29,279 bases of DNA from a virus (IMGVR_UViG_2917398303_000005:1-29279); one strand, 5' to 3'; numbered from the stretch's first letter, positions 1 to 29,279 are shown. The notes: generated from the letters alone by a model not told the origin. A program made the numbers and translations.

Positions 1-17
1 ACGCAATTTCAATAAAT

Positions 18-46
18 AAAAAAAGGGCCAGCCAATTGGCCAGCCC
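18..46 (-). terminator. putative intrinsic terminator downstream of int
   Basis: Imperfect GC-rich hairpin at 25-46 (gggccagccaattggccagccc) preceded on the plus strand by an A-run at 18-24, which is a U-run after the hairpin on the minus strand. It lies about 120 bp past the int stop, so it could instead belong to the attL/host junction. Confidence 0.35.
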
Positions 47-172
47 TTCTTAACAGGATGTCGCTTAAGCGAAATCTTAGTTAAGACGCTCCTATTAACA
101 CCCCATAACAAACAAACACTTACCATATAAAACAATTAGTTAATGCAATTTTTAATGCAGTGAATTGCAGCG

Positions 173-1222
173 TTACGCAACCTCTGCCGCCACGTTGTCG
201 CCAATACACAGTGACAACGGATTCAAGGTGACAGCTTGTTCAAGATGGTCAGGAGCAAAGTGCGCATACTTCATTGTTTCACGAATATTTGCGTGACCGA
301 GTATCTTCTGGAGTACAAGGATATTGCCGCCATTCATCATAAAATGCGCACCAAAGGTGTGACGTAAAACGTGCGTTTTCTGCCCTTCAGTCAATTCAAT
401 GTTTGTAAGTTTGAGCATCTTCTTAAAGTCCTGATAGCAGGGCTTGAACATTCTACCCTGACGTTCGGACAACTCGTCATACAGCCATTTAGGAATCGGA
501 ACCGTGCGATTCTTCTTACCTTTGGTTTTGGTGAAAGTCAGCTTGCAGGGGGAAAGTTGGGGACGTGTAAGTCTCTCAGCTTCTCCCCATCGTGCGCCGG
601 TAGCCAGGCACACCTTAACAATCATAGTAAGATTTTCTTTGCCATATTGTTCACAGGCTCGGAACAGCTCAGGGAGCTGAGACAAAGTTAGCCAGGACAT
701 TTCCTTCTCAGCTTCTTTGAACACCCGGATCCCATCTAGCGGATTAGGTAAGCTCCACTCCCCTAAACGTTTTAGCTCATTAAACACCGCTTCAAGATAC
801 TGCTGCTCACGATTGACGGTTATCGGCTTAGCGACCCATTTCGCCGGGTCTTTATGGTATCCATTATCTATCTCGCCACGCAGACGGCGGTCACGGTAAT
901 GCGCCCATTCTTTAGCCGTAAGTCGGGATGCAATCGGGTCACCCAAACCGTTACACACGATTTGAAGTTTTGCCAGCCGTGACTTACTGGCGACTAACGC
1001 CTGCCCGTGCAAATTATGCCAAAGCTGGATAATCTCACTTAAGCGCCTGCGGTCTTCTTTCTTACCGAGCCACGGCTTTTCATCGCTTTCGTTTTTTGTA
1101 AATGACTCGAATGCCTCGGCCTCACCTTTGGTATTGAATTGCCGACGGATACGCCGCCCTTCTCGACCATTTGGATAGAGCTCACATAACCATTTGCCAC
1201 TTTTTTGTTTACTTACAGTCAT
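173..1222 (-). CDS. int: phage integrase, tyrosine site-specific recombinase (P2/186 Int-like)
   Basis: 349-aa ORF. The C-terminal region HVLRHTFGAHF...LGHANIRETMKYAHF fits the tyrosine-recombinase R..HxxR..Y catalytic pattern. It sits at the prophage end, co-oriented with the repressor as in P2/186. Confidence 0.9.
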   Translation of the reverse strand: MTVSKQKSGKWLCELYPNGREGRRIRRQFNTKGEAEAFESFTKNESDEKPWLGKKEDRRRLSEIIQLWHNLHGQALVASKSRLAKLQIVCNGLGDPIASRLTAKEWAHYRDRRLRGEIDNGYHKDPAKWVAKPITVNREQQYLEAVFNELKRLGEWSLPNPLDGIRVFKEAEKEMSWLTLSQLPELFRACEQYGKENLTMIVKVCLATGARWGEAERLTRPQLSPCKLTFTKTKGKKNRTVPIPKWLYDELSERQGRMFKPCYQDFKKMLKLTNIELTEGQKTHVLRHTFGAHFMMNGGNILVLQKILGHANIRETMKYAHFAPDHLEQAVTLNPLSLCIGDNVAAEVA

Positions 1223-1246
1223 TGCGACACCGAGGCTAAAAGAGAG

Positions 1247-1585
1247 TTAATTACAAAGGGCTGTAGCAGCATCAATCAACGGTGAAATTGAAATTTTAAC
1301 ACCGTCAATCTCAGGGTCATCTTTCCATACGTCATCTAAATTAGATCCTTCCATCTTTCCTGATTTAACAGCATCTACTGCCATACCATTCAGTGGATAT
1401 CTATCATCAGTTTTGATGTCATACACAAAAGCATAAGCACGGTTAACACACGATACTTTTGCCTTTTCAAAGGATAGAGGCCACTGGTCGCCATATGCAG
1501 CCCCGTCTATCTCTTTGCTCTTCTCTGCAGCAGCGACACTAAATGAAAGAGTAAAAAGTAGAGTTAAAATAAGTTTACGCTTCAT
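1247..1585 (-). CDS. small secreted protein (signal peptide, two Cys), moron between int and cI
   Basis: 112-aa ORF with N-terminal MKRKLILTLLFTLSFSVAAA, a typical Sec signal peptide with an AxA-like cleavage site. The region is AT-rich by eye compared with the flanking int and cI. It weakly recalls small periplasmic DUF2511/YebY-like proteins from memory only. Confidence 0.6.
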   Translation of the reverse strand: MKRKLILTLLFTLSFSVAAAEKSKEIDGAAYGDQWPLSFEKAKVSCVNRAYAFVYDIKTDDRYPLNGMAVDAVKSGKMEGSNLDDVWKDDPEIDGVKISISPLIDAATALCN

Positions 1586-1611
1586 AAATTCCCTTACCGA
1601 GGCTAATATTT

Positions 1612-2016
1612 TTACTGAATGTTCTTTGTCGTGGCTAAGTGGGTATTAGAGCTAATAGTCACTTTGGATTGTTCCGGTTGCTCTTGACCAGCTTTATCGC
1701 AAGTAGCTCTCGGATTCTCAAGCGCATACCCCATGAAACTAAATTTATTGAGGATTTGAACCGCTTTAGTAGTTTTTAGGTATGCCGTATTTTCTTTATG
1801 TAGCCATACTGGATAGCAAACACCATATACAGCAGTATCATAAATTTCAGGTGTGACCGTTGGCGTATCCAGAACAACAGTAATCACACCCTTACTATCT
1901 TTTATCGATAAAGGCTGCATATCATTCAACGACTTTTTAAGCACAGACAAATTGGATGGCTGAGCATGTACAGCAAAAGAAGTGAGTAACACAAGAGCAA
2001 AAATTGAACGTTTCAT
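1612..2016 (-). CDS. small secreted protein (signal peptide), moron between int and cI
   Basis: 134-aa ORF with N-terminal MKRSIFALVLLTSFAVHAQP signal peptide. AT-rich, and tightly packed between cI (stop 2025) and the next ORF. Confidence 0.6.
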   Translation of the reverse strand: MKRSIFALVLLTSFAVHAQPSNLSVLKKSLNDMQPLSIKDSKGVITVVLDTPTVTPEIYDTAVYGVCYPVWLHKENTAYLKTTKAVQILNKFSFMGYALENPRATCDKAGQEQPEQSKVTISSNTHLATTKNIQ

Positions 2017-2024
2017 AAGTTCCC

Positions 2025-2867
2025 TTATATATGTTTTTCCAAAGTAAAAATTACAGCACCAAAAGGGGTAATGTCTGAAATATTACATTCAAACTCAGCA
2101 GATTTATTTGATAGCCTGACTTTTCCGCCGGGTAGTCGAACTACATCAAAAACATCAAAAGCGCCATCGATATCAATTAACCAGCGGCCATTACCTATAT
2201 TCGAAGCAGAACAGTCGACAAGCCAGGAAGCACCAGCACCGTCAACAAAAATCAACTCCTCAGAGTTAGACGGAATCATTGAAGGGTCAGGTTGCCAACT
2301 TCCTGCATCTTTGAGCTCACCAGACTCAAGGCGAGATTTTTTTATTGTCAGAACGTCGGGATAGCAGACCTCTTTGCTTTGTCTCATTTTCCCCTTGCCG
2401 GTAGCTAACCACTCCAGCGATACGCCAGTATCAAGGGCGCACGTAACAACAACATCACCGGGGAAGAAATCTCTCCTGACCCAAGTACTGATAGTACCAG
2501 AGGAAATATCAAGCAAATCACCAAGCTCTTTTTGCATTGTAAAACCATACGCATCAAGGATACGCCTCAATACAGGTTTTCCACCGCTCGTTAAAATCTC
2601 GTCATAAAGTAACTTCCCTTTCAACGCCGGTGCATCTTGCAAATTCAAACTGGAGATTGTTCCAGTCAGCAACCAATTTAGATCGGCACCAGTATCTAAT
2701 GAGCACTGAATTATCGCTTTTCCGGGAAAGCTATTCCGCTGAACCCACGTACTGACACTATTTGACGGGACGCCAAGCACCTCAGCCAAAGCCTTTTGCG
2801 TGCTGACACCATAGGCCGAACTTATCCGCTCAATCACATCTTGCGTATTCAAATCTTCATCATTCAT
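2025..2867 (-). CDS. cI: CI-type immunity repressor with two tandem phage-CI HTH domains and a possible S24-like C-terminal domain
   Basis: 280-aa ORF. Residues about 8-70 and 98-160 are clear paralogous repeats (…STWVQRNSFPG…DTGADLNWLLTG / …STWVRRDFFPG…DTGVSLEWLATG), resembling the phage CI repressor HTH domain. It is divergent from the rightward early operon and next to int. Confidence 0.8.
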   Translation of the reverse strand: MNDEDLNTQDVIERISSAYGVSTQKALAEVLGVPSNSVSTWVQRNSFPGKAIIQCSLDTGADLNWLLTGTISSLNLQDAPALKGKLLYDEILTSGGKPVLRRILDAYGFTMQKELGDLLDISSGTISTWVRRDFFPGDVVVTCALDTGVSLEWLATGKGKMRQSKEVCYPDVLTIKKSRLESGELKDAGSWQPDPSMIPSNSEELIFVDGAGASWLVDCSASNIGNGRWLIDIDGAFDVFDVVRLPGGKVRLSNKSAEFECNISDITPFGAVIFTLEKHI

Positions 2868-2980
2868 TTATCAATCACTCAAAATCGATTTACACGAACT
2901 CATTTTCGATCTAAAGTGGCATTCATCGACCAAGATGCACACCACTGCACCACATTTCAAACAACAGGAGATAATGCGAT
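2868..2980. promoter_or_regulatory. lysis-lysogeny switch region (operators and face-to-face early/lysogenic promoters expected)
   Basis: 113-bp gap between divergent cI and the cox/apl-like gene. Candidate rightward sigma70 promoter: -35 TTTACA at 2889-2894, 17-bp spacer, -10 TAAAGT at 2912-2917. Palindrome AAATCGATTT at 2882-2891. RBS AGGAG at 2966-2970. Promoter positions are eyeballed, not scored. Confidence 0.45.
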
Positions 2981-3352
2981 ATGTCAGATGCAAAATCAAT
3001 CTCGACGCATGATTCGCAAAACTCACAAAATCAAACTGTGCTGTTAGATCCGGCTCAGTTTGATGCCATCGTTACCGCTATGCTGCCAGCTCTGCAGACA
3101 ATGATCCGCTCCGCTATGTCAGACACAATGACAGTGAAAGACTTTGCCGCCACTCGCGGTGTAAGCGAGCGTCTGGTCTGGCAATGGCTTGATGAGGGAA
3201 TCCTCCTCAAAGCCCCAACTAAAGACTTTTCCAACAAGGAAGAGGCTGGAAAACGAAGCCGCACCCTCGTAAACGTGAAAGCATGGCGCGACAAACTAAC
3301 CCAGCAAGCGATTGATTGTCGCTACATCGACCACCGCATCGCTCTTAACTGA
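2981..3352 (+). CDS. Cox/Apl-like excisionase-regulator (HTH)
   Basis: 123-aa ORF with a strong RBS. First gene of the rightward early operon, with an HTH-like segment MTVKDFAATRGVSERLVWQWLDEG. Position matches 186 apl / P2 cox. An internal in-frame ATG at 3080 would give a 90-aa product closer to Apl in size. Confidence 0.6.
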   Translation: MSDAKSISTHDSQNSQNQTVLLDPAQFDAIVTAMLPALQTMIRSAMSDTMTVKDFAATRGVSERLVWQWLDEGILLKAPTKDFSNKEEAGKRSRTLVNVKAWRDKLTQQAIDCRYIDHRIALN

Positions 3353-3384
3353 ATTTGATTATGCAAGTTAGAGGGAATTTAACC

Positions 3385-3894
3385 ATGTTTGATTTTCAGA
3401 TTTCTAAACATCCTCACTATGACGAAGCGTGCCGGGCTTTTGCGCAGCGTCACAACATGGCGAAGCTGGCCGAGCGTGCGGGTATGAACGTTCAAACGTT
3501 ACGTAACAAGCTCAACCCGGAACAGCCTCACCAATTCACACCGCCTGAATTGTGGCTGCTGACTGACCTGACCGAAGACTCAACCCTCGTTGATGGCTTT
3601 CTGGCGCAGATTCATTGTCTGCCATGCGTGCCGGTTAATGAGCTGGCTAAAGAGAAATTGCAGTCTTATGTGATGCGCGCAATGAGTGAACTCGGCGAAC
3701 TGGCGAGCGGTGCGGTATCAAATGAACGTATGACCTCTGACCGCAAACACAGCATGGTTGAGAGTGTTAATGCAGGCATCCGCATGTTGTCTCTGTCGGC
3801 GCTGGCGTTACAGGCGCGTCTACAGGCTAACCCGGCAATGTCGAGCGTGGTTGATACCATGACCGGCATCGGCGCAACATTTGGTTTGGTATGA
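3385..3894 (+). CDS. cII: phage 186-type CII transcriptional activator (CP76 family)
   Basis: 169 aa from ATG 3385, with RBS GAGGGAA 8 nt upstream. Begins MFDFQISKHPHYDEACRAFAQRHNMAKLAERAGMNVQTLRNKLNPEQPHQF, which matches my recollection of 186 CII almost residue for residue. Confidence 0.8.
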   Translation: MFDFQISKHPHYDEACRAFAQRHNMAKLAERAGMNVQTLRNKLNPEQPHQFTPPELWLLTDLTEDSTLVDGFLAQIHCLPCVPVNELAKEKLQSYVMRAMSELGELASGAVSNERMTSDRKHSMVESVNAGIRMLSLSALALQARLQANPAMSSVVDTMTGIGATFGLV

Positions 3895-3901
3895 GGTGTT
3901 T

Positions 3902-4126
3902 ATGCAGGAAAATGAACCCTCATTCGCATCTCTGCTCGTTAAGCAAAGTCCAGGTATGCATTACGGTCACGGCTGGATCGCGGGTAAAGATGGTAAGCGC
4001 TGGCACCCGTGCCACTCTCAGTCCGAATTATTAAAAGGGCTGAAATCTAAGCAGTCGAAGTCGTCAGGCTTTTTAATTATTCGTATTGTCCACTTTATTA
4101 TTAAAGGGATTAAGCATGTCACGTGA
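3902..4126 (+). CDS. hypothetical early protein (186 fil/dhr position)
   Basis: In-operon ORF, ATG 3902 with RBS TGAGGTG upstream. 74 aa. No motif recognised. Confidence 0.5.
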   Translation: MQENEPSFASLLVKQSPGMHYGHGWIAGKDGKRWHPCHSQSELLKGLKSKQSKSSGFLIIRIVHFIIKGIKHVT

Positions 4127-4316
4127 TGAATTAAGAATTGTTTTAGGAGCCATGATTCCGAATATGGAAGACGGTTTTGAAATTAAAACCCGCGATGGTG
4201 CAATACTTCGCGTTGACCCTGAGTGGGAGTGCTGCAAAGAGTTTAAGGATGGCCTGAAAGCTGAGATTATCAGCCAGTTAAAAAGTAAACCTGCCGTTGT
4301 ATTTGGCTATAGCTAA
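4116..4316 (+). CDS. hypothetical early protein
   Basis: 66 aa from ATG 4116 with RBS AAAGGGA upstream. Overlaps the previous ORF's end, consistent with translational coupling. Confidence 0.5.
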   Translation: MSRDELRIVLGAMIPNMEDGFEIKTRDGAILRVDPEWECCKEFKDGLKAEIISQLKSKPAVVFGYS

Positions 4317-4385
4317 TTAATCACAATTAATTATCTGGCGTAAACCCGCCGGGCATTTTATTGCCCAAAATCAGGAGAGTTAGTT

Positions 4386-4613
4386 ATGCGTAATACCGAA
4401 TCCCGTAGTTTTAATACTGATAGTGATACTCTGGCCGTGCTGCTGACAGATGCCAAAAAAGAAGAACGCAAAGACCGCGCACTCGCCGTTTCAATCCGTC
4501 TTGAGGCGCTGGCTATCCATATCACTAAAGAGGGCATGAACGGCACCGAAGCCGCTGAACTGCTGCGACGTGAAGCCAACCGCTACGAAAACGAATCACA
4601 GGAGCTGCACTAA
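4386..4613 (+). CDS. hypothetical early protein (DUF2732-like, by recollection)
   Basis: 75-aa ORF with RBS AGGAGAG at 4373-4379. Its stop overlaps the next start (ATGA at 4610-4613). Confidence 0.55.
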   Translation: MRNTESRSFNTDSDTLAVLLTDAKKEERKDRALAVSIRLEALAIHITKEGMNGTEAAELLRREANRYENESQELH

Positions 4614-4834
4614 TGGCCGACGCAATGGATTTAGCACAACTGCGCGAGCAGGAAGACCGCGAACGCCACATCAGCAACGCGCGCTGCCGTATTGCAGCGA
4701 CCTCTCCTTTCCTATGCGAAGAATGTGACGCACCAATCAAGGAAGCCCGCCGTGCGGCAATTCAGGGGGTGGCATTTTGCGTGACTTGTCAGCAAATCGC
4801 CGAGCTCAAATCAAAACACTACAGGGGCGTGTAA
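4613..4834 (+). CDS. TraR/DksA-family C4 zinc-finger protein
   Basis: 73 aa with CEECDAPIKEARRAAIQGVAFCVTCQQ, a CxxC-N17-CxxC finger typical of phage TraR/DksA-like proteins found before gene A in P2-like phages. Confidence 0.75.
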   Translation: MADAMDLAQLREQEDRERHISNARCRIAATSPFLCEECDAPIKEARRAAIQGVAFCVTCQQIAELKSKHYRGV

Positions 4835-5239
4835 ATGAGTTTTCGAATCGAAATAGGTGACAAATGGATTATTACTAGCGACCAGTATCAATTTATCCTT
4901 AATGAAAAGAAAGTCGCTCAATCTGGGAAAAAATCTGGCGAGGAATGGCTTGATGCCATCGGATATTACCCAAAAATTGAACAACTTATTTCAGGATTAA
5001 TTCACCGTCATATTCAGAATTCGACCATAACTTCACTTAAAGAGATGGTCGTAGAAATAGAAAAAATGGGCGTATTATTCGCCAATGCTATTGAGAAAAT
5101 GCTCGGTCAATATACTCCTGACTTAAAAATACTGAGTCGTAATCTTTCAGACCCATTCCGTAATCCGAGGCATCTACTAGACCCAGAGAGCGGAGAAATT
5201 CACACGCTGCGGCGTACTCTCCCAATCCATCACAGGTGA
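4835..5239 (+). CDS. hypothetical protein in AT-rich island
   Basis: 134-aa ORF translationally coupled to the previous gene (TAA ATG at 4832-4837, RBS AGGGG upstream). The N-terminal ~85 aa look protein-like; the C-terminal part overlaps a convergent ORF. Confidence 0.5.
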   Translation: MSFRIEIGDKWIITSDQYQFILNEKKVAQSGKKSGEEWLDAIGYYPKIEQLISGLIHRHIQNSTITSLKEMVVEIEKMGVLFANAIEKMLGQYTPDLKILSRNLSDPFRNPRHLLDPESGEIHTLRRTLPIHHR

Positions 5240-5390
5240 GAGCCCTGTAAAAAACATTCTCATTGCAGACAAGGATTTTATATGGAACTCCAGGAATGGA
5301 TTCCTGCTGATTCTCAAACCACGCAGACAGGGCCGAATCATATGGCGGCAGATTCAAACTGTCTTTCATCTTGAATAATTTATGTTGCAT
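5088..5390 (-). CDS. hypothetical protein, convergent and overlapping the previous ORF
   Basis: About 100 aa from ATG 5390 (or GTG 5393), with RBS AAGGTG about 6 nt upstream on the minus strand. The acidic, globular-looking sequence (…KILVCNENVFYRALTCDGLGEYAAACEFLRSLGLVD…) reads more like a real protein than its antisense partner. Confidence 0.4.
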   Translation of the reverse strand: MQHKLFKMKDSLNLPPYDSALSAWFENQQESIPGVPYKILVCNENVFYRALTCDGLGEYAAACEFLRSLGLVDASDYGMGLKDYDSVFLSQEYIDRAFSQ

Positions 5391-5436
5391 CACAGCACCT
5401 TTTTAACACTCAACTTTGTGGGAGGCTACACGACCA

Positions 5437-7710
5437 ATGTTATGGAATCAAAAAGAAAGTCGACAGATGATACATGACGGAGGGGCATTAGATATTACTT
5501 TTGCTTATCCGTGGAATGCTCCACGGTCGGCTATAGCCAGCCCATACCTTACTTACGAGCATCAGCATCGCCGCGACCGTATGTTCGCGGCTTTGCTGCA
5601 TGCGAAAAAGGTGCTTTCTCTCCAGCCCGACTGCGTGCGGTTAGATGTTTATCGCACTGCGGCAGTGCTGGAGCAAAATCAGGGCATTCAACGAGCCAAT
5701 GCCTTTTTGATCAGCTTCTGCAAAAAGGCATTGCCGCGTCTTGAATTGGTCGCAAAAAAATACGAATGCGCGGGCATCAACAGCAAGGTATCAACCTCTG
5801 TTTTTGGAAGTCATTTTGATACCCAGCTTATGCAATATCTGGCCTCACGCATGGTTAATATGGTCGCCCGATATAACCGCCTCCCGGATATGTCGCGCGC
5901 TGATGTTGACCTGTTGGCCGCCGATATTGCTAATTTCATTCGTGGTGAACTTGCCAACATTAATGACCACGGATTCGGCGAGCTTAAAACGCTGTACACC
6001 TGGTATAATCGTGCTGGCTTTATTTCCCTCCAGTTCAACGTTATCCCACCCCATTGGGATCGGGTTGCAAAAAAATATGTCGGCGCGGATGAAATCGCAC
6101 CGGCTATCGCCAAGATGTTTAACGATGGGTGGTGGCGTGGTCGTTTGCGCCGGGTTGCAGCTACATGGCGCGAACACCTGCAAATTGCAGTCGGCAACGT
6201 CAGCAAGAAAAAAAACACCTATGCGAGTAAAAACTGCGTGACTGACTGGCGTGAACAAAAGCGCCGAACTCGTGAATTTCTCAAAGGTCTGGATCTCGAA
6301 GACGAAGACGGCAACCGTATCAGCCTGATTGAAAAATATGATGGCTCAGTTGCTAACCCTGCGATTCGCCGCTGTGAGCTCATGACTCGCATCCGTGGGT
6401 TTGAAAACATCTGTAATGAGCTCGGTTATGTCGGTGAGTTTTACACTCTGACCGCGCCGTCGAAATATCACGCCACGACTAAAGCCGGTTACCGTAACAG
6501 CAAATGGAGCGGTGCCAGCCCGGCTGACACGCAAAACTATCTAACCGGTATCTGGGCGCGTATCCGTGCCAAACTGCATCGGGAAGATGTCCGTATTTTC
6601 GGTATTCGTGTCGCCGAGCCCCATCACGACGGTACTCCACACTGGCACATGCTGATGTTCATGCTGCCGGAAGATGTTGAATATGTTCGCTCCATCGTAC
6701 GTAAATACGCGTGGAAAGAAGACCGCCGCGAACTGAAAAGCGATAAGGCCAAAAAAGCACGTTTCCACGCCGAGTCCATTGACCCGGAGAAAGGCAGCGC
6801 AACCGGCTATGTTGCTAAATACATCTCAAAAAATATCGACGGTTATGCTCTCGATGGTGAAACCGATGATGAAAGTGGTGAACTGCTGAAAGAGACAGCC
6901 CCCGCCGTTTCAGCATGGGCTTCGCGCTGGCACATCCGTCAGTTTCAGTTTATCGGTGGTGCGCCGGTGACGGTTTACCGTGAGTTGCGTCGCCTCGCTG
7001 ATACCGAAACCGCGCACGGACTGAGCGTTGAGTTTGCCGCCGTCCATGATGCCGCCGACGCTGGTGACTGGGCTGGGTATGTTAATGCGCAGGGTGGACC
7101 GTTTGTCCGTCGCGATGATTTACAGGTGCGCACACTGTATGAACCGCGTACCGAGCTTAATCAGTACGGTGAGGAAACGGTATGTATTAAGGGGGTCTAC
7201 GATTCCTCCATAGGTGCAGGGAGCCCGATATTAACCCGACTCACTCAGTGGAAGATTGTTCCGAAGCATGCTGTTGATTTGGCCGTTGACCTTCAGGACG
7301 GCAAAGCCGTCCCTCGGAGTTCTGTCAATAACTGTACGGGAAGCGAAAACGATCCACCGGTACTGGATTTGACAAAGCCCCTGAGTCGACGCGAAAGACG
7401 AGAGCTAACCAACCGACTCAGGAAGCAAAAGCCAGCAGCATGGCGAAAATTCATACACGGAACGGAGGAGCAAAACGCAGCTATAGCGAAAACTATCGAA
7501 GAGATACATCTGACAACCGGCATTAATATCAGCCGGGGCGAAGCTCTGCACTTGATGGCCGGTGGTAAAAGTTGTTTTGATGGTAAATGGCTACGCGGAA
7601 CGGCCAAAGGAGAAATATTTTCCACAGCACCATCGCATGAGGCTAAAGCCAGGAAAATCCTTAATCGTGTTGCTGCGATAGCTGAAGCATCAAAACCAAT
7701 ATCAGACTAA
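5437..7710 (+). CDS. A: replication initiation protein A (rolling-circle HUH endonuclease, P2 gpA-like)
   Basis: About 757 aa from ATG 5437 with RBS GGAGG at 5421-5425. HUH motif TPHWHMLMF and active-site tyrosine motif GYVAKYISKNIDG. Size and position match P2 gpA. Confidence 0.9.
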   Translation: MLWNQKESRQMIHDGGALDITFAYPWNAPRSAIASPYLTYEHQHRRDRMFAALLHAKKVLSLQPDCVRLDVYRTAAVLEQNQGIQRANAFLISFCKKALPRLELVAKKYECAGINSKVSTSVFGSHFDTQLMQYLASRMVNMVARYNRLPDMSRADVDLLAADIANFIRGELANINDHGFGELKTLYTWYNRAGFISLQFNVIPPHWDRVAKKYVGADEIAPAIAKMFNDGWWRGRLRRVAATWREHLQIAVGNVSKKKNTYASKNCVTDWREQKRRTREFLKGLDLEDEDGNRISLIEKYDGSVANPAIRRCELMTRIRGFENICNELGYVGEFYTLTAPSKYHATTKAGYRNSKWSGASPADTQNYLTGIWARIRAKLHREDVRIFGIRVAEPHHDGTPHWHMLMFMLPEDVEYVRSIVRKYAWKEDRRELKSDKAKKARFHAESIDPEKGSATGYVAKYISKNIDGYALDGETDDESGELLKETAPAVSAWASRWHIRQFQFIGGAPVTVYRELRRLADTETAHGLSVEFAAVHDAADAGDWAGYVNAQGGPFVRRDDLQVRTLYEPRTELNQYGEETVCIKGVYDSSIGAGSPILTRLTQWKIVPKHAVDLAVDLQDGKAVPRSSVNNCTGSENDPPVLDLTKPLSRRERRELTNRLRKQKPAAWRKFIHGTEEQNAAIAKTIEEIHLTTGINISRGEALHLMAGGKSCFDGKWLRGTAKGEIFSTAPSHEAKARKILNRVAAIAEASKPISD

Positions 7711-7784
7711 TTTATATCCATATCATGTACATACGACAATCGCCCTATTCGTTTTTTTTCTTCCCATCTTTTACCAATACGTGC

Positions 7785-7804
7785 TACTGTATAAACATAC
7801 AGTA
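7785..7804. promoter_or_regulatory. LexA operator (SOS box) overlapping a candidate promoter
   Basis: TACTGTATAAACATACAGTA is a near-perfect match to the CTGT-N8-ACAG consensus TACTGTATATATATACAGTA. It lies about 20 bp upstream of the RBS/ATG at 7824. A -10-like TATAAA sits inside the box. Confidence 0.75.
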
Positions 7805-7823
7805 ACCCTGTAGGAGGGATTCC

Positions 7824-8006
7824 ATGGTTGACGAACATTTCAGCCGAACGCAGCAAAAGTGGGCTTGTGTGCAATTTATTGCCGAGGTATCTCTGATTGC
7901 AAACTGCAAGCCATCAGACTTAAAGCTCGCGCTCACTCTCATTGCAGACCTAGCAAACAGCGAGAATAACGAAACCGAAGATGATAATTTTTATAAGGCT
8001 GATTAG
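7824..8006 (+). CDS. small SOS-regulated ORF (possible Tum-like antirepressor N-terminal part)
   Basis: 60-aa ORF with RBS AGGAGGG at 7812-7818, directly downstream of the LexA box. It ends at an amber TAG (8004-8006) and is in the same frame as the next ORF. Confidence 0.55.
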   Translation: MVDEHFSRTQQKWACVQFIAEVSLIANCKPSDLKLALTLIADLANSENNETEDDNFYKAD

Positions 8007-8009
8007 ATT

Positions 8010-8240
8010 ATGAGAATCAATATCACGTTGGATAAAGAACAAAAATTAGGGCAACAGATCATTGATGCTTTTCAGAATGAAATAACACATCGAGTACAAT
8101 GCGTTTTTCCTGCAATAAAAGTTAACGTCAAGAAAGGGTCAATGACTAGTGTAGAGGTTATCGGATTCGATAAAGAAGCAGACAAAGAAACATTAAGCGG
8201 CATATTACAAGAGATTTGGGAAGACGATAGCTGGCGTTAA
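8010..8240 (+). CDS. DinI-family protein (DinI-like / Tum C-terminal-like)
   Basis: 76 aa: MRINITLDKEQKLGQQIIDAFQNEITHRVQCVFP…ETLSGILQEIWEDDSWR. This parallels E. coli DinI (MRIEVTIAK…ISEILQETWESADDW) as I recall it. SOS-controlled through the upstream LexA box. Confidence 0.8.
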   Translation: MRINITLDKEQKLGQQIIDAFQNEITHRVQCVFPAIKVNVKKGSMTSVEVIGFDKEADKETLSGILQEIWEDDSWR

Positions 8241-8258
8241 ACATGATAACCGTGTTGG

Positions 8259-8315
8259 CGCAAAAACTAGCTTTTTGCGTCGACGGGGTTGAGTAACGAG
8301 CCCACGAGGCTTTAG
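8259..8315. repeat. repeat unit copy 1: 8-bp-stem hairpin plus conserved 34-mer
   Basis: Hairpin cgcaaaaa/ctagc/tttttgcg at 8259-8279, followed by GACGGGGTTGAGTAACGAGCCCACGAGGCTTTAG at 8282-8315. Matches copy 2 at 8686-8720 at roughly 85% identity by eye. Confidence 0.55.
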
Positions 8316-8439
8316 TCCGGCCTTTCAAAATTTCTCAATGTGCTATTGATGACACGCCAGTGATGAATGAGGCATGACCTGAGAGGGTTTTATAGTGGCG
8401 TTTTGACGGCACTGATTAAAATTCATTGAGGGTGATAAT

Positions 8440-8649
8440 ATGCATCGACTACCAGGTGAAATACCGCAGCACCAGACCAGAAATATTAAGTTAATGGCTA
8501 TCGTTCATCGCCTGCAGCAGATAATGGTCAATGAGAATTTGACACCCGCCGAGCTGGTCGGGTGCGCCGAAATAGTCAGGGATAATTGCGGCAAGCTGGA
8601 TAGCATCAGCAGACCGACAAAATACGCACCTCCACCACGTCGACGATAG
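8440..8649 (+). CDS. hypothetical small protein bracketed by the two repeat units
   Basis: 69-aa ORF with RBS GAGGGTG about 7 nt before ATG 8440. Arg/Pro-rich C-terminus. No recognisable motif. Confidence 0.4.
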   Translation: MHRLPGEIPQHQTRNIKLMAIVHRLQQIMVNENLTPAELVGCAEIVRDNCGKLDSISRPTKYAPPPRRR

Positions 8650-8659
8650 CAAACGTCGT

Positions 8660-8720
8660 CAGCGCTGAAACTCGCTTTCAGTGCTGACGGGGTTGAACAA
8701 CGAGCCCCGCGAGGCGTTAG
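8660..8720. repeat. repeat unit copy 2: 11-bp-stem hairpin plus conserved 35-mer
   Basis: Hairpin cagcgctgaaa/ctcgc/tttcagtgctg at 8660-8686, followed by GACGGGGTTGAACAACGAGCCCCGCGAGGCGTTAG at 8686-8720. It lies between convergent orf69 and orf143 and overlaps the orf143 stop. Confidence 0.55.
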
Positions 8721-9148
8721 CTGGTTACCAGATTGACACCGAGGGTAAGCAGGTTTGTCACCGCACCGGCAATCACTCCCGGCGTCCCGTCTTTCACTGC
8801 ACTGATAATCTTATCGCCCATTGTTTCATTACCGCCGAGCGCCTCGGGCTTTTTGTTAAGCACGGCGAGTGCTTTCTCGGTCAGGCGCACATCATAAAAA
8901 TAGGTCTGGTGGTCTGTTCCGTACTGGATGTAGCCGTTTTCACTGAGAAAAGTGAATGTACCCTCAACCACACTACGCAACTGATTCAGTGCGTTCATTT
9001 CTGGTGAGTTAAGTTGTTCAAAGTAGTCATCAGGTAGCGCGGCGTTAAATTTTTCGTAAGTAATGACCTGTGGCACCGGGAAGTTATCCCATAACACCGC
9101 AAAAACTTCCGCCGTCTGCTGGTTAAATAATTCGAGGTTTTTGGACAT
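8717..9148 (-). CDS. hypothetical accessory protein, reverse-oriented cargo gene at the P2 tin/old position
   Basis: 143-aa ORF with RBS AAGGGA about 8 nt upstream on the minus strand. Soluble-looking N-terminal ~110 aa plus a Gly-rich hydrophobic C-terminal tail (GTPGVIAGAVTNLLTLGVNLV). Opposite in orientation to the flanking genes. Confidence 0.6.
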   Translation of the reverse strand: MSKNLELFNQQTAEVFAVLWDNFPVPQVITYEKFNAALPDDYFEQLNSPEMNALNQLRSVVEGTFTFLSENGYIQYGTDHQTYFYDVRLTEKALAVLNKKPEALGGNETMGDKIISAVKDGTPGVIAGAVTNLLTLGVNLVTS

Positions 9149-9206
9149 GCATAATTCCCTTTCATCGATAGACCCGTTTGCCGATTGGGCAAAAAAGCTG
9201 ACTGTA

Positions 9207-9338
9207 ATGGCATCGAATAACGACCTGAGTTCTCGCGAGGTGGAAAGCTACACCGCAAAAATGGTCGACCAAGCCAGTAAAGATGAGCTTACGGTCGTTA
9301 TAAAACACCTGTTAAACCACATCAGAATGCACAAATAA
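9207..9338 (+). CDS. possible small ORF divergent from orf143
   Basis: In-frame ATGs at 9147 and 9207 within the 9063-9338 ORF; no convincing RBS. The 9147 start would overlap the orf143 start codon back to back. Protein from 9207: MASNNDLSSREVESYTAKMVDQASKDELTVVIKHLLNHIRMHK. Confidence 0.3.
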   Translation: MASNNDLSSREVESYTAKMVDQASKDELTVVIKHLLNHIRMHK

Positions 9339-9664
9339 AAGGATCTATATCAATATGTTATCTCTCGTTTATGAAAATCCGTGGACGACGATTTTTCTGC
9401 TGATTGTTGCCAGTATGTGCCTCAATAGTGTTATTGGCGCATTGCGCGGCCAGTAATCGCGACAAAACCAGACCCAAACCGGCACCCTGAATGCCGGTTT
9501 TTTTATGCCATTTTCCCGCGATTTCCCCGTTTTTTAGCCGTGCATGCAACAGGTGCATGGTTTTGCATGCGTCGGGGTTGCCCGTTCTGGTCGTGCGCCG
9601 CCAGTGCTGGCGCGGATTCAGAGTGGTCATGCAACTGCATTAAAACCGACCCATAAAGCGGGCA

Positions 9665-9683
9665 GGCGTGGCGGGGAAAGCAT
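9665..9683. other. cos site, 19-nt cohesive-end sequence (186-type)
   Basis: GGCGTGGCGGGGAAAGCAT matches my recollection of the phage 186 cohesive end (P2: GGCGAGGCGGGGAAAGCAC). It is where cos is expected, between the accessory locus and portal gene Q. Confidence 0.55.
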
Positions 9684-9822
9684 TGCGCGCCAGCGGTGGT
9701 GCGTAATAATAAAAATTATCCTCTGAGCGCGTCGTGATGGCGCTGTAGTGGATGCTGTCGGCTCGTTGGTGGTCTGGTGTGGCCGTGCGCGTGTGGTGCG
9801 TCTGAGGAGTGATGATAGCGGG

Positions 9823-9849
9823 GTATGAAAAAGCCGCCATGCTGGCGGC
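9823..9849 (-). terminator. intrinsic terminator after Q (minus strand)
   Basis: Perfect 7-bp GC-rich stem gccgcca/tgc/tggcggc at 9833-9849, followed on the minus strand by UUUUU (plus-strand A-run 9828-9832), right after the Q stop at 9860-9862. Confidence 0.6.
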
Positions 9850-9859
9850 TTGAGGGGGA

Positions 9860-10906
9860 TTATTCCGGGTTGTCTAGGGTGTACTCTTTGAATCTGATGA
9901 CCTCCATGCCGAGCCAGTCGTTTACCTCCCTGAACCTGTCCTGCAGGGGTGACAGCTCATTACGAACGAATACCTTTGCTACCTTCTCAACGTCACCGAG
10001 TGAACCGATATTCTCGGGCTTGCCGCCCATGAGCTGGAACGGTACGCGGTGCGCGTCCATCAGGTCGGCGGCACTGGCTTTCTTGATGTTGAAAAAGTCA
10101 TCCTTTGTGGCTACCTCGCTTAGTGGCACGATTTTGATGCCGTCCGGTTTTCCACCAGGAGCGTAGAAAAACAGGTTCTTAAAGTTGCCGAGCCCTTTTG
10201 AGTTGCGCATCGCCTCGCGCAGCGATTCGACGTCGGTCGCGCTCTGTGCCGGGTCGGTCACATACATGATGTAACCTGCATGCGCGCCGTTCTGGTAATA
10301 CTTGCGGCGGAACAGTGTCGCGGATTCATTCAGCCAGGCGGAATTAAGCGCGCTGAGATATTCGGGCAGACCGTAAATCTCCTGATTAATATCGGGCTCC
10401 AGCAGGTGAAACACGGTATTAGGGGCGAACTCGTGAGGCTGAGTGAAGTTTTCCACAAACCAGAAAATCGAATCGTCGACCCCGCGGCGGGTGTATTTGG
10501 CCGGTGAAGCCAGTAGCTTGATTAACCGGCCGGTGACGCTGTGGCGCTGCTCAAGAAAGGCGTTGCCGAATACCAGATAGTCGAGCGCAAAGCGGCTGAA
10601 ATCCTGACGTGACAGAAGCGGGTGTGGAATGTAGGTGCTCGCGAGCACGTTGCGTTTAACGTAAATCGGCGAGCTGTGATGTACGGCAGAGCGAAGGCTC
10701 TTTGCCAGTCCGGAAAAGCTGACCGGCGGCTCGTACCATTTGCCGTTACTGATGCACTCAACGTAATCCAAAATATCGCGCTTATCGAGTACCGGCACAG
10801 GCTCACCGAAGGTGAACGCTGTCGTTTTTGGTGGTGCGCTGGCGGTTAGTTGTTGTGGCTTGCTGGCCTTCTGCGCAGCGGCTTTACGGGATTTTTGTTT
10901 ACCCAT
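9860..10906 (-). CDS. Q: portal protein (P2 gpQ-like)
   Basis: 348 aa. MGKQKSRKAAAQKASKPQQLTASAPPKTTAFTFGEPVPVLDKRDILDYVEC… closely parallels P2 gpQ in sequence and size. Adjacent to cos and co-oriented with terminase. Confidence 0.9.
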   Translation of the reverse strand: MGKQKSRKAAAQKASKPQQLTASAPPKTTAFTFGEPVPVLDKRDILDYVECISNGKWYEPPVSFSGLAKSLRSAVHHSSPIYVKRNVLASTYIPHPLLSRQDFSRFALDYLVFGNAFLEQRHSVTGRLIKLLASPAKYTRRGVDDSIFWFVENFTQPHEFAPNTVFHLLEPDINQEIYGLPEYLSALNSAWLNESATLFRRKYYQNGAHAGYIMYVTDPAQSATDVESLREAMRNSKGLGNFKNLFFYAPGGKPDGIKIVPLSEVATKDDFFNIKKASAADLMDAHRVPFQLMGGKPENIGSLGDVEKVAKVFVRNELSPLQDRFREVNDWLGMEVIRFKEYTLDNPE

Positions 10907-10907
10907 T

Positions 10908-12676
10908 TTAGTTGAACTCCAGAATAGATTTAGGCTGCATGCCGCTACCGGCGGAAAGTGGTTCGTTTAACAGGGCGTGCATGGTCGCCCATGCGATATC
11001 GGCGTGACTGGCTTCCTCGGTGCGACTGGCCTCATAGGTGGCGCTGCGCCCGCTGCTGGTCATGGTTTTGCGGATGGACATAAACGACTGCGTGACGTCG
11101 GTCGCCCCGGCGTCATACTCCAGACAGCCACGGCGAATAGTGTCTTTTGCCTTGAGCACCATCGCGGTTTTCATTTCAGGCGTGTAACGGATGCCGCGTG
11201 CCGCCGGGTAGAATGAGCGCACCAACTGGAAAACGCCGAGGCCGAGCCGGTTGCGTCAATGCCGATGTATTCGACGTTGTATTTCTCGGTCAGCTTGCGG
11301 ATGCCCTCAGCCTGCGCGGCAAAGTCCATGCCTTTCCACTGATGACGCTCCAGCATGCGGAACTTGCCACCCGAGACCACCGGCGGCGCGAGCACGACGC
11401 ACCCGGCACAGTCGCCAGTATGTGACGGGTCGTAGCCAATCCAGACCGGGCGTGAGCCGAAAGGATGGTCGGCGAACGGGGCAAAGTCCTCCCATTCTTC
11501 CATCACGTCGACCATGCAGCGCTGTAGTTCCTCGAACGGGAATACCGACGCTTTATCGTCGACAAACTCGCACATAAACAGGTTTTTAAAGTCCTCATCA
11601 CTGTTTTCGCGTTTGAGCTGGTCGAGGTCGAACAGGGTACAGCCACCGGCAAGGGCGTCCTCAATGGTGACAATCTGCCGCCACTGTCCATCGTCGCAGA
11701 GCTGACCACCGGCGAGCGCGTTGTGACTGATGTCGATTTCGATGCGGTCTGCAATACGGCTGCGCCCCTTGTTGAACAGCTCACCAGACCAGAAGGGGTA
11801 AGCGCCGTGCGCCAGCGTGGACGGTGTCGAACAGTAGGTTGAGCGCAGGTGCTTCTGCGAGGCCATGCCCGACGCGACTTTGCGCAGCTTCTGAAAATTC
11901 GGGATCCAGAATATTTCATCGACATACAGGTCGCCGTTATGGCTCTGCGCGGTGTTGGAATTGGTACCGAGAAAAATCAGCTTTGCGCCGTTGTTGCCGA
12001 TGACAATCGGGTCGCCGGTCAGGTCGACGTCGACCAGCCGCGCAAACTGGATGATGTACTCGCGGAACACGTAAGCCTGCGTTTTACTGGCCGACAAAAA
12101 TATCTGGTTGTGGCCGGTCTTGAGCGCGCGCAGCAGCGCCTCGCGGGAGAAATAGAACGTCGCGCCAATCTGGCGGGATTTGAGAATATCGCGAATACGG
12201 TGCGCCAGCCCTGCGCGGTACCACTGCAACTGGTACTCGAAAGACTGGTCGAAAAATAGTTCCTCCAGTTTCTCGATAGCCTCGTCGCTGAAAAAGTTCT
12301 TTTTCGGCTTTTTACGCTCGCCTTTGTTGCGGTTGGCGACATTGGGGTTTAGGTCGACCTCGTTGCCGGTCTGGCTGTAGCGGTTAACGCGCGCCAGTCG
12401 CTCAATCTGCCGCCCGAGCAGGTCAATTTCTTTGAAATCGCCGCCTGACTTTTGCGGCTTGGCGATGAGATGAATCAGGCGCGCCTCAAGGCTGCTTTCG
12501 ACGCGGGAAATCGGTGCGATACCGTCCCAGCCGTCGCGCTGCTTCCAGCTCTGCACGGTCGGGCGCTTGACCTGCAGCATTTCGGCAATCTGTGGCACGG
12601 AAAAGCCCTGCCAGTAAAGCAGCGATGCCTGCCGTCGCGGGTCATGCAACAAGGTTGTATCGGTGGAAATGGTCAT
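10908..12676 (-). pseudogene. P: terminase large (ATPase) subunit, P2 gpP-like, interrupted by a 1-nt frameshift near 11240-11250 (or a sequencing error)
   Basis: A 501-aa ORF (11171-12676) and a 105-aa ORF (10908-11225, VRSFYPAARGIRYTPEMKTAMVLKAKD…) are in different frames and together give about 589 aa (P2 gpP is about 590 aa). After …YIGIDATG the first frame turns into an unconvincing SASAFSSWCAHSTRRHAASVTRLK tail, while the second reads LGLGVFQLVRSFYP…. Confidence 0.7.
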
Positions 12677-27626: not shown

Positions 27627-28112
27627 ATGATGCTTGCTCTCGGAATGTTTGTGTTTGAACTTCGCACCCTACCTTATCAGTCGATGCAACACTCGAAAGA
27701 TTACCGCTGGGTATCTAATGACCGGGTCGGTAAGCCGCCTGCGTATCAGTTTCTTGGTGAGGGGGAAACATCTCGCCAGCTTGCCGGTACGCTTTACCCT
27801 GCAATTACCGGCGGTTGGATCTCCCTCAAGGCTGTCGAGGTGATGGCTAACGAGGGCAGAGCATGGCCGCTGATAGAGGGAACCGGCAACATTCTCGGGA
27901 TGTATATCGTCGACAGAGTATCGACCACGCACACTGAGTTTTTCAGCGACGGTGCAGCCAGAAAGATTGATTTCACTCTTTCGCTTAAACGGGTCGACGA
28001 ATCACTGACGGCGATGTTTGGCGACCTGAATAAACAGGCCAGTGAGCTTCTCGGCTCTGCCGGAAATGTGGCCGATAAGCTGCAGGGTTCGCTCGGAGGA
28101 CTTACAGCATGA
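27627..28112 (+). CDS. U: tail protein U (P2 gpU-like)
   Basis: 161 aa (P2 gpU is about 159 aa). Its stop overlaps the D start. Confidence 0.85.
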   Translation: MMLALGMFVFELRTLPYQSMQHSKDYRWVSNDRVGKPPAYQFLGEGETSRQLAGTLYPAITGGWISLKAVEVMANEGRAWPLIEGTGNILGMYIVDRVSTTHTEFFSDGAARKIDFTLSLKRVDESLTAMFGDLNKQASELLGSAGNVADKLQGSLGGLTA

Positions 28113-29279
28113 TTACGGGCATGACCATTGACGCCAGTGCCAGCCTTGCACCGGCATTTATGCTGACGCTGAACAGCCAGGACATTACCAGCAATTTTAG
28201 TGACCGGCTGATTTCTCTTTCCATGACCGACAACCGGGGCTTTGAAGCTGACCAGCTCGACATTGAGCTCGACGACTCTGACGGCAAAGTCGAATTACCC
28301 CTGCGCGGGGCAGTGCTGACGTTGTGGCTTGGCTGGCAGGGTTCGGCACTTCTGAATAAGGGTGATTTCACGGTCGATGAGATTGAGCACCGGGGCGCGC
28401 CTGATACCCTGACCATCCGTGCACGCAGTGCAGACTTTCGCGGTTCGCTCAATTCCAGGCGTGAAGAATCATGGCATGACACCACCCTCGACGAACTGGT
28501 CAGCACCATTGCGAAACGCAACAAACTGACGGCCAGCGTAGCGGATGCACTAAAAAAAAATCCCAGTATCGCATATCGACCAGTCGCAGGAGTCCGACTC
28601 GGTATTTCTGACCCGACTGGCTGACCGAAACGGAGCTGCGGTATCAGTGAAAGCGGGGAAACTGCTGTTTATGAAAGCGGGGAGCGCGACGACGGTCAGC
28701 GGTAAGCCAATTCCGCAAATGACGTTGACCCGTAGCGACGGTGACCGTCATCAGTTTGCTATCGCTGACCGTGGGGCTTATACCGGCGTAACCGCTAAAT
28801 GGTTGCACACTAAAGACCCGAAGCCGCAAAAGCAGAAAGTTACGCTGAAACGACAGCCAAAAGAGAAACACCTGCGCGCACTGGAACACCCGAAAGCAAA
28901 GCCGGTCAGCAAAAAGACAAAGGCCAAAAAAGAGCAGGAAGCACGCGAGGGTGAGTACATGACCGGTGAAGCCGATAACGTGCTGGCGCTTACGACGGTC
29001 TACGCATCAAAGGCACAGGCGATGCGCGCCGCTCAGGCTAAGTGGGATAAGCTGCAACGAGGTGTTGCCGAGTTTTCAATTACGCTGGCGCTCGGTCGCG
29101 CTGATTTATTTCCCGAGACGCCAGTGCGCGTATCAGGCTTTAAGCGCGTCATAGACGAGCAATCTTGGTTAATCAGTAAGGTAACTCACAATCTGAATAA
29201 TAATGGCTTCACGACGGGGCTAGAGCTTGAGGTTCAGCTTTCGGAAGTAGAGTACAGTTCAGAGGAAGATAGAGATTGA
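28109..29279 (+). pseudogene. D: tail protein D (P2 gpD-like), frame broken at an A9 homopolymer (28552-28560), or a sequencing error
   Basis: ORFs 28109-28624 and 28647-29279 together give about 390 codons (P2 gpD is about 387 aa). The downstream frame is already open and gpD-like upstream of its ATG (IPVSHIDQSQESDSVFLTRLADRNGAAVSVKAGKLLF…). The frames switch at the A9 run; one A fewer would restore a continuous ORF. Confidence 0.7.

Follow-up and report, generated by a model that had tools for sequence, protein, structure and literature searches.

A known counterpart of the locus considered here is the tum gene of phage 186, the product of which binds the CI repressor, blocks its binding to the operators and is needed for induction of the prophage by UV or mitomycin (Shearwin et al. 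1998, as cited in PMC3121763). Lemire et al. (2011; PMC3121763) describe 186 Tum as looking like an antirepressor fused to DinI, and report that in both Fels-2 and PSP3 the tum gene is split by a stop codon; the antirepressor activity in PSP3 is there attributed, by way of a personal communication, to the upstream gene of the pair. The GenBank record of PSP3 (AY135486, Eganvirus PsP3) annotates the two genes as tumA, encoding 60 aa and "similar to 5' end 186 tum; UV induction of prophage", and tumB, encoding 77 aa and "similar to dinI and 3' end of 186 tum". The record of 186, for its part, lists an internal-start product, Tum95.5, that "modulates SOS induction". The Eganvirus paper PMC11126057 contains nothing on tum. 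The two-part tumA/tumB arrangement is already known, both in the literature (PMC3121763) and in GenBank.

The stretch of viral DNA analysed here, referred to as the window and 29,279 nt in length, is a prophage of the P2 family, of the 186/PSP3 (Eganvirus-like) type; its principal features are collected in Table 1. Directly downstream of replication gene A, and starting with a LexA box that begins 75 nt past the end of that gene, lies a unit of two ORFs, which we call tumA and tumB after their PSP3 counterparts. We conclude, with a probability of about 85%, that this region is an intact and natural two-gene SOS induction module of the PSP3/186 type, consisting of the predicted antirepressor TumA and a separate DinI-like protein, TumB. 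The original prediction was correct in its description of the layout: a near-consensus SOS box some 20 bp upstream of a two-ORF unit (the interval from the end of the box to the tumA start codon is 19 nt), and a 60-aa ORF and a DinI-like ORF that share one frame with only TAG-ATT between them.

Table 1. Coordinates of features in the window
Feature	Position	Strand	Remarks
int	173-1222		
cI	2025-2867	-	Pfam PF07022 (two stretches) and PF16452
CII gene (CP76 family)	3355-3894		
Replication gene A	5416-7710		
Putative -35, TTCCCA	7761-7766	+	Aligned to the annotated -35 of 186 p95, TTCACA; by homology only
LexA (SOS) box, TACTGTATAAACATACAGTA	7785-7804	+	Two mismatches to the 20-mer consensus
Putative -10, TACTGT	7785-7790	+	Within the LexA box; same hexamer as the annotated -10 of 186 p95
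Shine-Dalgarno sequence of tumA, AGGAGG	7812-7817	+	Read from the sequence; 6 nt 5' of the ATG
tumA	7824-8006	+	60 aa, TAG at 8004-8006; predicted antirepressor of the prophage CI
Weak Shine-Dalgarno-like AAGG of tumB	7995-7998	+	In the last codons of tumA, 11 nt 5' of the ATG; putative function
Junction TAG-ATT	8004-8009	+	Between tumA and tumB; ATT at 8007-8009
tumB	8010-8240	+	76 aa, DinI family; same frame as tumA
Long hairpin	8247-8291	+	Just 3' of tumB; lacks a U-run, role as terminator uncertain
Portal, terminase, capsid and tail genes	3' of the tum region		

The LexA box, TACTGTATAAACATACAGTA, is the sole sequence in the 29-kb window to match the consensus with three or fewer mismatches (0.00 expected, from 100 shuffles), and the core pattern CTGT-N8-ACAG likewise occurs once, at the box (0.29 expected). 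Each of 28 related loci has CTGT-N8-ACAG at a distance of 35–46 nt 5' of the homologous start codon, and the columns of the box are invariant in an alignment with PSP3, 186 and representatives of five genera; the GG-rich block at the Shine-Dalgarno position of tumA is also kept in the alignment of relatives. The putative promoter hexamers are separated by a spacer of 18 nt, equal to that of 186 p95, which is a LexA-repressed promoter with the box lying over its -10, as in the window; indeed, the -10 of p95 likewise forms the opening 6 nt of the LexA site. The hexamers of this p95-like promoter are weak, and it was not flagged by a consensus promoter/terminator scan of 7650–8750. A LexA box that overlaps the promoter and directly follows gene A is one of the features of a 186/PSP3-type Tum module, and the window has it.

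TumA is identical to PSP3 TumA at 58 of 60 residues, and its relationship to 186 Tum, although more remote, is apparent at the level of sequence profiles. It matches phrog_1993 (E 1.8e-31), a family that is also matched by residues 1–61 of 186 Tum (E 1e-22), and when two families, that of TumA and that of the N-terminal part of 186 Tum, are aligned with hhalign, residues 16–49 of the former fall on residues 14–47 of the latter, in register (probability 83%, E 8.5e-6). BLASTP gave no alignment between the 60-aa ORF and 186 Tum, and the homology to the Tum N-terminus therefore rests on profile methods, by which TumA is remotely homologous to the N-terminal part of Tum. The original prediction had allowed that the 60-aa ORF might prove to be unrelated to the Tum N-terminus, and the hhalign and phrog_1993 matches speak against this. 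Sequence searches with TumA of Pfam, NCBIfam and the PDB returned nothing meaningful, and phrog_1993 carries no functional annotation in PHROGs. An AlphaFold2 model of TumA is a two-helix hairpin (mean pLDDT 67). The change G3D was considered as a damaging substitution in TumA and rejected, since position 3 is variable in the family.

Homologues of TumA form 207 clusters spread across many genera, including Escherichia, Salmonella, Klebsiella, Citrobacter, Cronobacter, Enterobacter, Yokenella, Kluyvera, Kosakonia, Pluralibacter, Atlantibacter, Buttiauxella and Phytobacter. A length of 60–61 aa is seen in 103 of the 120 homologue clusters listed; the longer ones are gene-caller artefacts, in which an upstream start reads across the LexA box, and they have the same FYKAD/E ending. 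Among the clusters listed, no DinI domain was found.

The second ORF is DinI-like, as had been claimed. TumB matches the Pfam DinI family PF06183 over profile positions 2–62 of 63 (E 2.2e-18; 66.8 bits versus a cut-off of 24.2), phrog_189, annotated as 'RecA filament binding protein DinI' (E 1e-29), and the structure of Escherichia coli DinI, 1GHH (E 4.6e-9). Its identity is 64% to residues 71–146 of 186 Tum and 45% to PSP3 TumB, which bears out the suggestion that the unit is Tum-like with a DinI-like C-terminal part. The tumB ATG (MRINITLDK) aligns exactly with the annotated GTG start of Tum95.5 (V71, VKVNITLDK). Moreover, a ribosome-binding site is annotated at the place equivalent to that of the putative tumB site in the record of phage Midge, and AAGG or GAGG is found there in relatives. 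In 186 tum (locus L002, 1813–1828), a perfect AAGGAGG lies 5 nt 5' of the internal GTG; because Tum95.5 keeps an AAGGAGG of its own, the fused 186 gene behaves as two translation units. Ser46 of TumB, which had been considered as a damaging residue, was rejected as such, being common to the main E. coli TumB cluster. Beyond tumB, the RNA fold of 8236–8345, which includes the long hairpin, has a free energy of −32.8 kcal/mol (z −2.09), and the scan of 7650–8750 called no terminator; in 186, the equivalent place is occupied by a partial terminator, t95a.

TumB is also where the resemblance to PSP3 breaks off. The DNA is about 93% identical to PSP3 up to a point near 8056, inside tumB, after which similarity stops. 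As TumB is 186-like and the similarity to PSP3 ends at about 8056, modules have been exchanged within the conserved MRINITLDKEQK start of tumB, and the window is, to judge from these comparisons, a mosaic in which a PSP3-type tumA is joined to a 186-type DinI module. Phage vB_EcoM-613R3 and 27 E. coli genomes share this combination.

The one-codon, in-frame junction between tumA and tumB admits several readings, of which one, put forward in the original prediction as a sign of decay, is that a 186-type fused tum has recently been broken by an amber mutation, leaving a pseudogene module in a non-inducible prophage. The translation of 7824–8240 through the stop is indeed collinear with 186 Tum (47% identity over 135 residues), and the terminase gene P and tail gene D of the same prophage are frameshifted. 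Against this stands the occurrence, in intact relatives, of two separate ORFs with the stop between them, an outcome that the original prediction had itself named as refuting. A survey by script covered 28 genomic loci, which come from no fewer than 12 genera of enterobacteria; in 27 of them the TumA ORF is 58–61 aa long, with its stop at one alignment position and written as TAG, TAA or TGA, and the exception (L031) has a premature stop and a TumA ORF of 37 aa. The split pair is carried by seven distinct isolated phages, namely, PSP3, Midge (from fresh water, on E. coli 4s), SEN1, SW9, SI22, RCIP0057 and vB_EcoM-613R3; of 5426 complete E. coli genomes, 80 have a match to the region, and in every record listed the RefSeq annotation has each ORF as a gene, one as 'hypothetical protein' and the other as 'DinI-like family protein'. 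A search with the artificial read-through protein found no fused TumA-type protein, returning 186-type fusions of 146 aa and TumB-type proteins of 76 aa only. Similarly, an exhaustive HMMER search, in which the TumA profile was run against 1.84 billion representatives, gave 36 matches, 33 of which are 33–87 aa in length, and 186 Tum was not among them at E ≤ 0.001; the remaining three are of 109, 137 and 931 aa, the first two being without a DinI-like tail and the last being matched in seven short stretches. Furthermore, selection on tumA is not relaxed: the median pairwise dN/dS is 0.10, falling to 0.03 in the core (residues 10–44), at a dS that is near saturation between genera, such that tumA is under strong purifying selection, with the acidic tail (residues 45–56) being variable (dN/dS 0.36). 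Additionally, TumA genes mostly stand without a DinI gene behind them, a DinI-like gene following in only 8 of the 28 loci (among them L004–L007, L013, where it is apparently frameshifted, L024 and L028). We therefore give a recent amber break almost no credence: the TAG between tumA and tumB is natural and not a lesion, and the stop codon ending tumA is ancient. It was the other suggestion of the original prediction, a deliberate two-part arrangement, that proved right, such an arrangement being annotated in PSP3 and occurring naturally across phages and loci.

A natural stop might still be a leaky one, with read-through, or an amber-suppressor host, yielding a TumA-TumB fusion that resembles 186 Tum and serves as the active, or as an additional, regulator. 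Consistent with this, 186 makes both a fusion and a separate DinI-like product, and a junction of one codon that leaves both genes in frame is shared by the window, L004–L007, the PSP3-type phages and even the divergent L013: TAG-ATT-ATG recurs in PSP3, L004, L005 and L007, whereas L006 has TAG-TTT and L013 has TAA-GCG before the ATG. However, whereas the PSP3-like group and L013 have 3 nt between the genes, L024 has 5 nt and L028 has 16 nt, and the genes of these last two loci are out of frame; because the gap varies, the shared frame is a trait of one junction lineage and not a rule. Nor is the identity of the stop constant, and since TumA mostly lacks a DinI gene downstream it must be able to work alone. 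The predicted RNA structure across the junction is no better than that of shuffled sequences (z −0.94). We consider a leaky stop quite improbable. A more restricted proposal, that the in-frame junction of the PSP3-type lineage and of the Atlantibacter locus L013 has been selected for slight read-through, with the fusion tethering the antirepressor to RecA filaments, is, in our estimation, a shade more doubtful still; if true, the split phages would make TumA, TumB and the fusion side by side, three products in all, in parallel with 186 and its several forms of Tum. A different kind of doubt concerns not the junction but the target, for the 60-aa protein might not act on the CI of its own prophage, serving instead as a trans factor for another prophage or in some other SOS function, with the DinI-like gene as a stand-alone neighbour that shares its promoter. 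The lack of Pfam, NCBIfam and PDB matches and of a function in PHROGs leaves room for this, trans-acting antirepressors are documented in Salmonella (PMC3121763), and the TumA core (residues 10–44) is almost invariant across genera, yet the CI proteins of the same loci fall to 42–47% identity. Set against these points are the profile homology of TumA to the N-terminal half of the experimentally characterized 186 Tum, an identical genomic position and promoter, the attribution of UV induction and antirepressor activity to tumA in the PSP3 record and in PMC3121763, and the presence of a 186/PSP3-family CI in all 23 of the TumA loci (of 28) for which the immunity region lies inside the fetched DNA. 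An action away from the resident CI is thus unlikely, albeit less so than the readings that turn on the stop codon.

The preferred reading, of an intact two-gene module directed at the resident repressor, calls for a cognate CI, and the same element encodes one that belongs to the 186/PSP3 family. This protein, of 280 aa, comprises two tandem Phage_CI_repr HTH domains followed by CI_C, and is 74% identical to the CI of PSP3 and 31% identical to that of 186; it is presumably the target of TumA. The CI of PSP3 (285 aa) has the same double-HTH form, and that of 186 (192 aa) has one HTH domain. Across the surveyed loci, the long form of CI is seen in 19 of 23, and those of L011, L012, L030 and L031 look to be single-HTH proteins.

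From the literature and from homology we infer the following sequence of events. In the lysogen, host LexA would occupy the box over the -10 of the p95-type promoter and hold the operon off. On DNA damage, RecA would become active and LexA would cleave itself, such that tumA and tumB are transcribed. TumA, probably a two-helix protein, would then bind CI and stop it from binding its operators, with consequent derepression of the lytic promoter. TumB would be translated from its own ATG, 3 nt past the tumA stop, possibly aided by ribosomes that terminate at tumA, and most likely binds RecA filaments, tuning the SOS signal and with it induction, rather than acting on CI. Coupled re-initiation, or translational coupling more generally, is plausible but unsupported, because there is no significant structure at the junction.

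The wider context of the module is that of a P2-type element. The closest genome locus, that of Escherichia sp. E1V33 (L004), is 98.4% identical over window positions 1–9839 and has only three differences between 7700 and 8300. Where the similarity is interrupted (9839–9860 in the window versus 10015–11162 in L004), L004 has about 1.1 kb more, including a 334-aa ORF on the minus strand; this extra DNA lies between the accessory region and the portal gene and constitutes an indel at a P2-type variable hotspot. Two small ORFs on the minus strand (1247–1585 and 1612–2016) fill the interval between int and cI; they have signal-peptide-like N-termini, one belongs to DUF2511 and the other has no family, and they are probably accessory (moron) genes expressed in lysogeny. 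At the same position, PSP3 has a DUF2511-like gene, gp28, alone. On the far side of the tum operon, and convergent with it, is a 143-aa ORF (8717–9148, minus strand) that matches phrog_2266. Midge also has a minus-strand gene at this place, just 3' of its DinI-like gene, which is annotated as a putative transcriptional regulator and is said in the record to have HHpred similarity to the T7 5.5/5.7 fusion protein; it resembles the ORF at 8717–9148 by position. In the commonest Salmonella TumA cluster, P0050 (L043–L045), no DinI gene comes after tumA; its place is taken by HEPN_RiboL-PSP and GmrSD_N genes, encoded on the other strand, which look like defence genes in a P2 hotspot.

The frameshifts mentioned above lie among the late genes. 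The gene for the large terminase subunit, P (10908–12676, minus strand), has one base missing at about 11246 relative to L004, such that it is read as ORFs of 501 and 105 aa, whereas L004 has an intact ORF of 589 aa. Tail gene D (28109–29279) changes frame at around 28554–28564 relative to PSP3 gp26 (389 aa), with residues 1–152 of gp26 matched in one frame and residues 149–386 in another. The frameshift in P is either a real inactivation or a sequencing error. In the original prediction, other lesions were taken together with the stop as suggesting a non-inducible or decaying prophage; lesions of this sort are present in P and D, but they have no bearing on the tum module, where no sign of decay is seen. 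Unless the frameshifts are errors of sequencing, the prophage is defective in making particles, independently of the tum module. With an SOS trigger that looks intact and two late genes that are frameshifted, DNA damage may derepress the early genes without giving rise to particles.

Since the arrangement has been described before, little of this is new, and the value of the analysis is one of annotation. The 60-aa 'hypothetical protein' that RefSeq places beside a 'DinI-like family protein' is, by prediction, the LexA-controlled antirepressor TumA; this applies to many prophages of Enterobacteriaceae, in which the stop codon of tumA is no lesion. A modest general addition comes from the comparative data and concerns the modular character of the system, as set out below.

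Comparison with known systems places the window closest to PSP3, with which it shares the position after gene A, the LexA box, the TAG-ATT-ATG junction leading into a DinI-like gene and the long, double-HTH CI; the 69-aa ORF downstream of tumB also resembles orf37 of PSP3, whereas in 186 it is orf97 that lies downstream of tum. Phage 186 differs, moreover, in having a single continuous Tum ORF of 146 aa, with a linker 12 residues longer, where the window has the split form of PSP3. E. coli DinI (1GHH) aligns with TumB end to end, including the C-terminal acidic helix, ILQE.WE..D.W; TumB falls below the NCBIfam equivalog cut-off (57 versus 111 bits), and by this measure it is best described as a phage paralogue and not as the chromosomal dinI. 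The dinI-gfoA/gftA operons of Gifsy-1, -2 and -3 (described in PMC3121763) offer a further parallel: they are LexA-controlled and encode a small antirepressor and a DinI homologue as two genes, but in these operons dinI comes first, other families supply both antirepressor and repressor, and the phages are lambdoid rather than P2-like. The N-terminal module of the 186 type also occurs as a stand-alone gene, of 63–67 aa and with no DinI gene after it. Overall, the antirepressor and DinI modules behave as independent and exchangeable units, which are fused in 186, adjacent in PSP3 and in the window, and represented by TumA alone in most relatives.
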